Source: Escherichia phage Pu-Krd-SF3. Taken from it: a stretch of DNA of 64,000 bases. The DNA lies in the sequence record PQ249397; one strand, 5' to 3'. This document shows positions 26,025 to 27,040 of this stretch, one piece after another. A program made the position numbers and the translations under genes. Every line of letters begins with the position of its first letter. Within the stretch, counting starts at the first letter, position 1. The notes under the pieces were generated by a model that saw only the letters and a program-made list of their open reading frames with translations, had not been told where the DNA came from and did no database searches.

Positions 26025-27040
26025 TAATTGAGGCCTGAGTATAAGGTGACTTATACTTGTAATCTATCTAAACGGGGAACCTCTCTAGTAGACAATCCCG
26101 TGCTAAATTGTAGGACTGCCCTTTAATAAATACTTCTATATTTAAAGAGGTATTTATGAAAAGCGGAATTTATCAGATTAAAAATACTTTAAACAATAAA
26201 GTATATGTAGGAAGTGCTAAAGATTTTGAAAAGAGATGGAAGAGGCATTTTAAAGATTTAGAAAAAGGATGCCATTCTTCTATAAAACTTCAGAGGTCTT
26301 TTAACAAACATGGTAATGTGTTTGAATGTTCTATTTTGGAAGAAATTCCATATGAGAAAGATTTGATTATTGAACGAGAAAATTTTTGGATTAAAGAGCT
26401 TAATTCTAAAATTAATGGATACAATATTGCTGATGCAACGTTTGGTGATACATGTTCTACGCATCCATTAAAAGAAGAAATTATTAAGAAACGTTCTGAA
26501 ACTGTTAAAGCTAAGATGCTTAAACTTGGACCTGATGGTCGGAAAGCTCTTTACAGTAAACCCGGAAGTAAAAACGGGCGTTGGAATCCAGAAACCCATA
26601 AGTTTTGTAAGTGCGGTGTTCGCATACAAACTTCTGCTTATACTTGCAGTAAATGCAGAAATCGTTCAGGTGAAAATAATTCATTCTTTAATCATAAGCA
26701 TTCAGACATAACTAAATCTAAAATATCAGAAAAGATGAAAGGTAAAAAGCCTAGTAATATTAAAAAGATTTCATGTGATGGGGTTATTTTTGATTGTGCA
26801 GCAGATGCAGCTAGACATTTTAAAATTTCGTCTGGATTAGTTACTTATCGTGTAAAATCTGATAAATGGAATTGGTTCTACATAAATGCCTAACGACTAT
26901 CCCTTTGGGGAGTAGGGTCAAGTGACTCGAAACGATAGACAACTTGCTTTAACAAGTTGGAGATATAGTCTGATCTGCATGGTGACATGCAGCTGGATAT
27001 AATTCCGGGGTAAGATTAACGACCTTATCTGAACATAATG
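26025..27040 (+). mobile_element. group I self-splicing intron in td (1016 nt) carrying the I-TevI ORF
   Basis: intron 5' end taattgaggcctgagtataaggtgac and 3' end ...gaacataatG; the two exons join in frame to a 286-aa TS; length matches the T4 td intron. Confidence 0.85.
26156..26893 (+). CDS. intron-encoded GIY-YIG homing endonuclease I-TevI
   Basis: 245 aa; MKSGIYQIKNTLNNKVYVGSAKDFEKRWKRH with GIY...YVG motif, zinc-finger linker and C-terminal DNA-binding domain; matches I-TevI. Confidence 0.9.
   Translation: MKSGIYQIKNTLNNKVYVGSAKDFEKRWKRHFKDLEKGCHSSIKLQRSFNKHGNVFECSILEEIPYEKDLIIERENFWIKELNSKINGYNIADATFGDTCSTHPLKEEIIKKRSETVKAKMLKLGPDGRKALYSKPGSKNGRWNPETHKFCKCGVRIQTSAYTCSKCRNRSGENNSFFNHKHSDITKSKISEKMKGKKPSNIKKISCDGVIFDCAADAARHFKISSGLVTYRVKSDKWNWFYINA

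Follow-up and report, generated by a model that had tools for sequence, protein, structure and literature searches.

The thymidylate synthase gene td of Escherichia phage Pu-Krd-SF3 (sequence record PQ249397) does not run in a single open reading frame, and the locus raises the question of whether td consists of two genes on either side of an endonuclease gene, or is one gene interrupted by a group I intron that is removed from its transcript. The question was addressed in a 64,000-nt stretch of DNA from this phage, hereafter the window, in which positions are counted from the first letter and features lie on the plus strand unless stated otherwise. In the record PQ759884.1 (Escherichia phage Pu-Krd-SF4), the td region of which is 100% identical and has the same coordinates, td is annotated as two separate CDS with no intron, and nrdB likewise as two genes. 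The td intron and its endonuclease I-TevI are founding examples of bacterial self-splicing and intron homing. An earlier note on this DNA had read the segment from 26025 to 27040 as a td group I intron with I-TevI, and we conclude that this segment is almost certainly the mobile group I intron found in td of T-even phages and that its P6a loop contains an intact I-TevI gene.

A 1016-nt insert in td is the T4 td intron

The break in the td reading frame was found where the earlier note had placed it. The open reading frame at 25476-26027 ends in ...VDVFLG followed by TAA, the insert beginning with the three bases of this stop codon (26025-26027), and the protein sequence resumes with LPFNIASY at 27041, which sets the split points at 26024/26025 and 27040/27041. 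Exon 1 (25476-26024) comprises 183 codons and ends with U26024, the base at the 5' splice site, while exon 2 (27041-27352) comprises 103 codons plus the stop. Excision of 26025-27040 joins the two into 861 nt and restores the 286-aa thymidylate synthase that had been claimed. The joined product matched the Pfam thymidylate synthase family (PF00303, Thymidylat_synt) over residues 2-286 with E = 5.9e-97. The predicted splice junction reads GGU/CUA, and the exon junction of this phage is ...CAACGATCAGTAGATGTTTTCTTGGGT followed directly by CTACCATTCAACATTGCC.

Alignment to the T4 td intron, proposed as a check, identified the insert directly: it is 99.7-99.9% identical to the td introns of T4 and RB6. 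The RB6 intron differs at one position, a synonymous C/T at 26647 in the third base of Cys164, and the intron of the T4 record NC_000866 differs by the same C/T at 26647, by A/C at 26973 and by an indel of one base close to 26116; with further T4 records the match extends over 1016 nt. Among td introns, position 26973, in the unpaired J7/9 segment, is polymorphic. The td group I intron at 26025-27040 is further supported by a curated join of the exons in phage U5 and by intronless td alleles, both considered below, and identity with the T4 td intron would assign it to subgroup IA2.

The element shares with the td intron of T4 (and also with those of T6, RB3/RB6, U5 and LZ2) its host gene, insertion site and 1016-nt length, and with that of T4 an identical I-TevI protein and the same upstream hairpin and late-promoter element. 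The difference from the T4 element is confined to the exon context, exon 1 and exon 2 having 87% and 70% nucleotide identity to T4, respectively, and to position 26973, where this phage has A and T4 has C. Full-length td elements at high identity were present in approximately 197 records of the phage collection searched. The earlier reading was correct and precise, and the element was known beforehand; its anatomy does not depart from the described system. This phage, a close T4 relative with the T4 td intron, adds nothing biologically new.

The intron encodes an intact I-TevI

The 245-aa GIY-YIG endonuclease assigned to the intron was recovered as the open reading frame at 26156-26893. Its product contains GIY-YIG, I-TevI_ZnF and I-TevI_DNA-bd domains (Pfam PF01541, E = 2.1e-18; PF22635, E = 1.3e-20; PF20987, E = 3.3e-32) and has 100% amino acid identity to T4 I-TevI. 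The crystallised domains 1I3J, 1MK0 and 1LN0 in the PDB were all matched, residues 130-245 being identical to 1I3J and residues 1-97 to 1MK0 except at position 75, where the query has E and the crystallised chain A. The GIY-YIG residues Y6, Y17, R27, H31, H40, E75 and N90 are all present, and from the identity of the protein to T4 I-TevI we infer that it is an active endonuclease. Minus-strand open reading frames of 44-68 aa also occur within the intron and were treated as chance.

Control of I-TevI expression

In T4, early and middle read-through transcripts leave I-TevI untranslated, and an intron-internal late promoter gives rise to a shorter, translatable RNA (PMC2988022). The corresponding signals are found upstream of the gene here. 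A hairpin at 26127-26156, formed by 26127-26137 with 26146-26156, buries the Shine-Dalgarno sequence GAGG together with the A of the I-TevI AUG; it folds with -13.7 kcal/mol (z = -4.8), and an RNA beginning at 26137 gave 0 kcal/mol and no structure. The exact late consensus TATAAATA was not found upstream of I-TevI, where a late-promoter-like element, TAATAAATA (26124-26132), agrees with it at 7/8 positions. This element is identical to that of T4 and overlaps the I-TevI operator described there. By analogy with T4, I-TevI would be silent early, its ribosome-binding site being buried by the hairpin in transcripts that come from upstream of td, and late transcripts would begin just past TAATAAATA and be translated, the 5' side of the hairpin being missing from them.

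T4 I-TevI also represses its own late promoter through an operator that resembles its homing site (PMC2988022), and the protein encoded here may, as in T4, bind an operator overlapping the late promoter. The best 20-nt match of the exon junction to the region upstream of I-TevI was 12/20 in this phage and 14/20 in T4; with equal matches elsewhere in the intron, the similarity taken alone is not significant. The operator step rests instead on identity with T4, because the likeness to the phage's own exon junction is weak and not unique. A scan for sigma-70 promoters returned seven sites against 9.2 expected, and a terminator-like match on the minus strand proved to be the P8 hairpin of the intron core.

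Homing and the history of the element

I-TevI cuts 23/25 nt upstream of the insertion site and tolerates changes in its homing site (PMC2988022). A copy of its cleavage motif CNNNG, CAACG, is found at 25998-26002 (-27 to -23 relative to the intron insertion point), in agreement with the published cleavage distance. In the resident genome this motif is inert and the allele should be immune, because the intron splits the I-TevI binding site. During co-infection with an intronless relative, however, I-TevI would be expected from the T4 system to bind the uninterrupted exon junction and cut at CAACG, and repair from the intron-bearing genome would then copy the intron into the cut allele.

The identities to T4 form a mosaic, with 99.7% in the intron against 87% in exon 1 and 70% in exon 2, and the exon differences from T4 nearest to the splice sites are at 26003 (22 nt upstream) and 27046 (6 nt downstream). 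Such a combination of a nearly identical intron with diverged exons is what a mobile intron together with recombination among T-even phages would be expected to leave, and the abrupt loss of identity at the exon-intron borders provides a clean illustration of intron mobility in this group. It could also be envisaged that the intron was acquired laterally only very recently and with hardly any co-conversion of the exons, in a tract shorter than is usual for I-TevI homing. Such a short tract would hint at a different route of entry or at strong selection against exon conversion, but we regard this history as unlikely. Recombination between co-infecting intron-bearing phages, which would place a T4-type intron beside U5-type exons, is no less likely. 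The nucleotide sequence of exon 2 has 99% identity to that of phage U5, although the U5 intron has only 96.7% identity to the intron in the window. Phage U5 itself already bears the intron.

We also considered whether the intron splices while the element as a whole is immobile, the endonuclease being inactive or blind to the td alleles of this lineage and its gene a decaying passenger. Truncated or ORF-less td introns are indeed common in relatives (G28, 445 nt; PYps55T, 320 nt; KlebEI, 315 nt; PD112, 262 nt; N2, 254 nt), and silent changes from T4 in exon 2 fall within the I-TevI binding region, where this phage has CCA TTC AAC and T4 has CCG TTT AAT. The ORF in the window, however, is of full length and its product, with the GIY-YIG residues in place, is 100% identical to the active T4 enzyme, while the cleavage motif CAACG is retained at the right distance and I-TevI is described as tolerant of changes in the homing site (PMC2988022). 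An immobile element is thus highly improbable, and we retain the reading of 26025-27040 as a mobile intron.

The group I core of the intron

The Rfam group I intron model was also proposed as a check, and the refuting outcome named in the earlier note, a covariance model that does not place the P1-P9 helices, does in the literal sense occur on the window as it stands. RF00028 has a gathering score of 50 bits, and a scan of the whole window at the gathering threshold gave no match to it. In E-value mode on 25900-27200 the model aligned with 42.5 bits (E = 3.5e-9). The 3' half of the core (P7, P3', P8, P7' and P9) was properly aligned, but the 5' half was forced into the ORF; the real 5' half lies approximately 800 nt from the 3' half in the window, too far for RF00028 to bridge. 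The intron is missed by RF00028 because a 754-nt P6a-loop segment with the I-TevI ORF separates the two halves of the core, and the shortfall is a limit of the method that stems from this insertion. Since the ORF splits the core, the null result at the gathering threshold was not taken as absence of an intron. Seven other matches obtained in E-value mode on 25900-27200 (snoRNAs, Xist and others, with E = 2.8-8.3) were dismissed as chance.

While the raw window thus stayed below the gathering score with its 5' half misplaced, natural ORF-less td introns were matched by the same model at full length, with 77.1 bits for GRNsp7, 73.8 for PD112, 72.6 for N2, 66.9 for PYps55T and 63.8 for Klebsiella phage EI. 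These matches cover model positions 1-253 and begin 10 nt into exon 1, and the core of the PYps55T intron is identical to that of the intron in the window.

The structure was further analysed by aligning the cores of 12 td introns, from which the ORF loop had been cut out, and scoring a hand-drawn P1-P10 model on the alignment. The intron of Erwinia phage RisingSun was kept out of this alignment because its insertion site is different and the position of its 5' end uncertain. The model (P1-P2-P3-P4-P5-P6-P6a-P7-P7.1-P7.2-P8-P9-P9.1-P9.2-P10) has 81 pairs, and among the 12 td introns 99.2% of cells were paired and six compensatory pairs were located in P7.2, P8, P9.2 and P10. None of 500 shuffles matched the observed values, and slid controls were 32-45% paired with no compensatory pair. 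RNAalifold, run without a supplied structure, recovered all nested helices; P7 is absent from its prediction because it is a pseudoknot. Covariation backs only P1, P7.2, P8, P9.2 and P10, whereas P2-P7, which are invariant in the td set, are backed by conservation and by the Rfam model and not by covariation. The P7 strands agree with conserved segments of RF00028.

In the window, P1 (26019-26038) pairs exon UUGGGU (26019-26024) with the guide GCCUGA (26033-26038) and is 100% paired; three of its pairs vary on one side only while staying paired, and the RF00028 alignment concurs. The P2 hairpin (26039-26056), of 7 bp with a GUGA loop, is present in both the structure model and the RNAalifold prediction. 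The 5' strand of P3, UCUAUC (26063-26068), pairs with 26934-26939, and the segment 26072-26103, invariant in the td set, holds P4 (26072-26077 with 26096-26101), P5 (26082-26084 with 26090-26092) and the 5' strand of P6 (26102-26103). The 5' strand of P6a, UGUAGGAC (26109-26116), spans the loop containing the ORF to pair with 26875-26882. Both the structure model and RNAalifold place the 3' strands of P6a (26875-26882) and P6 (26888-26889) within 26875-26889.

In the 3' half, the 5' strand of P7, GACUAU (26895-26900), pairs with 26965-26970 to form a pseudoknot with P3. It is followed at 26901-26929 by P7.1 (26901-26903 with 26908-26910) and P7.2 (26913-26919 with 26924-26929), which contain one compensatory pair (UA to CG). 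The segment 26934-26970 comprises the 3' strand of P3 (26934-26939), P8 (26940-26959, with two compensatory pairs), J8/7 and the 3' strand of P7 (26965-26970). P9 (26975-26992, with a GUGA loop), P9.1 (26993-27008) and P9.2 (27009-27029, with two compensatory pairs) occupy 26975-27029.

The I-TevI ORF is located between the two strands of P6a, and natural deletions remove the ORF and leave the core untouched. The P6a stem is intact in the natural deletions PD112 and PYps55T, and an unrelated hairpin takes its place in N2. The last approximately 20 nt of the ORF also supply the 3' side of P6a and P6.

The T4 td intron is self-splicing (PMC2988022), and guanosine-dependent self-splicing of the present intron is to be expected from its 99.7-99.9% identity to it. 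As in T4, the pre-mRNA would fold as a ribozyme and free guanosine would attack after U26024; exon 1 would next attack after G27040, ligating GGU/CUA and giving an mRNA for the 286-aa thymidylate synthase. On unspliced td RNA, translation would end at the first codon of the intron, UAA.

These results bear on the reading implied by the annotation, namely that td is truly split into genes 25476-26027 and 27038-27352 that flank a free-standing endonuclease gene, with no splicing, so that the enzyme would consist of two pieces or the gene would be dead. Exactly these three CDS, and no intron, are given in PQ759884.1. The second annotated td CDS (27038-27352) starts on an ATG (27038-27040) that is in frame with exon 2, and Rfam at the gathering threshold found no intron in the window. 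That ATG, however, is made up of the last three bases of an RNA that possesses the full group I core and ends in G, the 1016 nt are those of the experimentally established self-splicing T4 td intron (PMC2988022), and curated records of U5, RB6 and T4 join both exons. A truly split td therefore has hardly any claim to be correct. With td read as one gene interrupted by an intron, the practical gain is a correction of the GenBank record, the right td product being one thymidylate synthase of 286 aa. Standard scanning with Rfam misses ORF-bearing group I introns, and this is probably the reason why automated annotation fails at such loci.

Exact boundaries of the intron

The span of exactly 1016 nt, from 26025 to 27040, that the earlier note had given is held by the U-G pair at the 5' splice site, the terminal G, the U5 join and intronless alleles. 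The exact boundary is not set by restoration of the protein alone, because moving both ends by -1 (GGG CTA) or by +1 (GGT TTA CCA) also gives Gly-Leu-Pro. Exon U26024 stands opposite G26033 as the P1 wobble, this position being UG in 12/12 td introns, and the terminal intron G at the 3' splice site (27040) is invariant in all 12 aligned introns. In the record of phage U5 (AY262155) the curated td CDS is join(1..549,1566..1877) and the 1016-nt query maps at 550-1565; td of the RB6 and T4 records is likewise given as a two-piece join. A probe of the spliced junction aligned ungapped with many intronless td genes, including those of phiD1 and RB14, and the intronless td of phiD1 reads ...TTCTTGGGC followed by TTGCCATTC across the site. 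Natural deletion derivatives of 254-445 nt share both intron ends with the full-length td intron. Boundaries one base off, at 26024-27039 or 26026-27041, keep Gly-Leu-Pro and the 286-aa frame when the sequence is read, but only 26025-27040 combines a U-G pair at the 5' splice site with a G at the 3' end, the curated U5 join and the placement of P1 by RF00028 also accord with these boundaries, and such a shift is scarcely credible.

Comparison with other thymidylate synthase introns

The ORF-less and truncated td introns (N2, GRNsp7, PD112, PYps55T, Klebsiella phage EI and G28) share their splice sites and ribozyme core with the intron in the window. I-TevI is wholly or largely missing from them, whereas the present intron keeps the complete ORF. 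In N2 and GRNsp7, unrelated 12-nt hairpins stand in place of P6a plus the ORF.

Erwinia phage RisingSun and the IMG/VR contig L030 contain thymidylate synthase introns with a related 3' core (P9-P9.2, ending in ...GAACAUAAUG), and the RisingSun intron also bears a GIY-YIG endonuclease. In contrast to the T4 site, these introns are inserted 21 nt upstream, before the Ser codon of S-V/A-D-V-F-L-G. We take the Bacillus mojavensis thyA intron with I-BmoI to be of the same kind, with its insertion 21 nt upstream; a limited check of the literature for the 21-bp offset of I-BmoI gave no statement of the distance.

Other homing endonuclease genes in the window

The three homing endonuclease genes attributed to the window, segG, I-TevI and I-TevIII, were all present, the last of these at full length. 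The free-standing segG (21551-22183) lies between gene 59 and gene 32, its neighbours encoding gp59 and gp32, and its product has 98.6-99% amino acid identity to SegG of T4 and RB6 and matches phrog_7504; the Pfam GIY-YIG model gave no match to SegG at E <= 0.01. A fourth homing endonuclease gene was not found in the annotation of the record, by phmmer of all ORFs of >=60 aa or by PHROG comparison of ten larger unnamed ORFs. The same block of T4 contains four, namely segG, I-TevI, mobE and an I-TevIII remnant. The further claim of a high density of selfish elements did not hold up, three such genes within 10 kb being ordinary for a T-even phage: T4 has 15 homing endonuclease genes, which make up approximately 11% of its genome (PMC2988022).

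The third gene lies in a 1090-nt group I intron of nrdB (30875-31964), which appears as a gap against intronless nrdB and carries the I-TevIII ORF at 31020-31829. The 269-aa product is an HNH protein (HNH_3 at 2.4e-12) that matches phrog_12324 over residues 1-269 of 269 and belongs to the full-length family, not to that of the 97-aa remnant. The td intron and the T4/RB3 nrdB intron with I-TevIII are both phage group I introns in genes of nucleotide metabolism, and both have an endonuclease ORF in a peripheral loop with a late promoter just upstream. Unlike the td intron, however, the nrdB intron encodes an HNH rather than a GIY-YIG endonuclease and differs in its host gene and in its own sequence.

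Related introns in thymidylate synthase genes

ORF-less td introns of 254 nt were found in phage N2 and in Salmonella phage GRNsp7, in each case at 151-404 of the stored sequence. The two are nearly identical apart from 12-nt hairpins that are mutually unrelated (GTTCTTTTGAAC and CAGCAGTAGCTG), and these hairpins occupy the place that P6a and I-TevI take in the window intron. They may be traces of ORF loss, or may represent forms older than ORF invasion. Among phage introns from IMG/VR, 18 that lack the ORF have CCCGTGCTAAAT...TAAATGCCTAACGACTAT in common as a flanking motif, and the hairpin enclosed by it varies.

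Related introns were also observed in the thymidylate synthase genes of Erwinia phage RisingSun (about 562-1632 of its stored sequence) and of IMG/VR contig 3300027859_000006. In contrast to the T4 site, both are inserted 21 nt further upstream, immediately 5' of the Ser codon in S-V/A-D-V-F-L-G and near the I-TevI cleavage position, and the RisingSun intron encodes a GIY-YIG endonuclease.

Exon 2 of the window td gene overall displayed 69% protein identity to T4 and 99% DNA identity to phage U5. The C-terminal ~45 residues of Td (27200-27352) are nearly unrelated to the T4 counterpart (VISGLPYKFRYLSTKEQLKYVLKLR...).

The nrdB intron and its surroundings

In nrdB the window has another group I intron, 1090 nt long (30875-31964), with U30874 as the exon end and G31964 as the final intron base; it too was without an Rfam match at the gathering threshold. 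Within it, I-TevIII (31020-31829) is a full-length HNH ORF of 269 aa; it is of the RB3 type and differs from that of T4, which is truncated. The intron also contains TATAAATA at 30985-30992, a perfect match to the late-promoter consensus. While in T4 mobE sits between nrdA and nrdB, it is absent from this gap in the window (30147-30199), where the spacing is only 51 nt, and the nrdB intron would therefore be dependent on its own I-TevIII.

Neighbouring genes and annotation

The same exact consensus was found at 22081-22088, within segG and upstream of gene 32, in agreement with the published promoters of gene 32 that are embedded in segG.

Between frd and td, which directly adjoin in T4, the window has a 115-aa ORF of unknown function (25084-25431; phrog_1928) with no Pfam match; RB6 likewise has a hypothetical protein in this position.

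In PQ759884.1, the GenBank record of Escherichia phage Pu-Krd-SF4, td (window 25476-27352) and nrdB (30199-32467) are each entered as two CDS with the intron unannotated. The second td CDS spans 27038-27352, its start ATG being the final three intron bases. In the same record, gp32 (22234-23142) is called a hypothetical protein despite a Pfam gp32 match (E = 1e-66).
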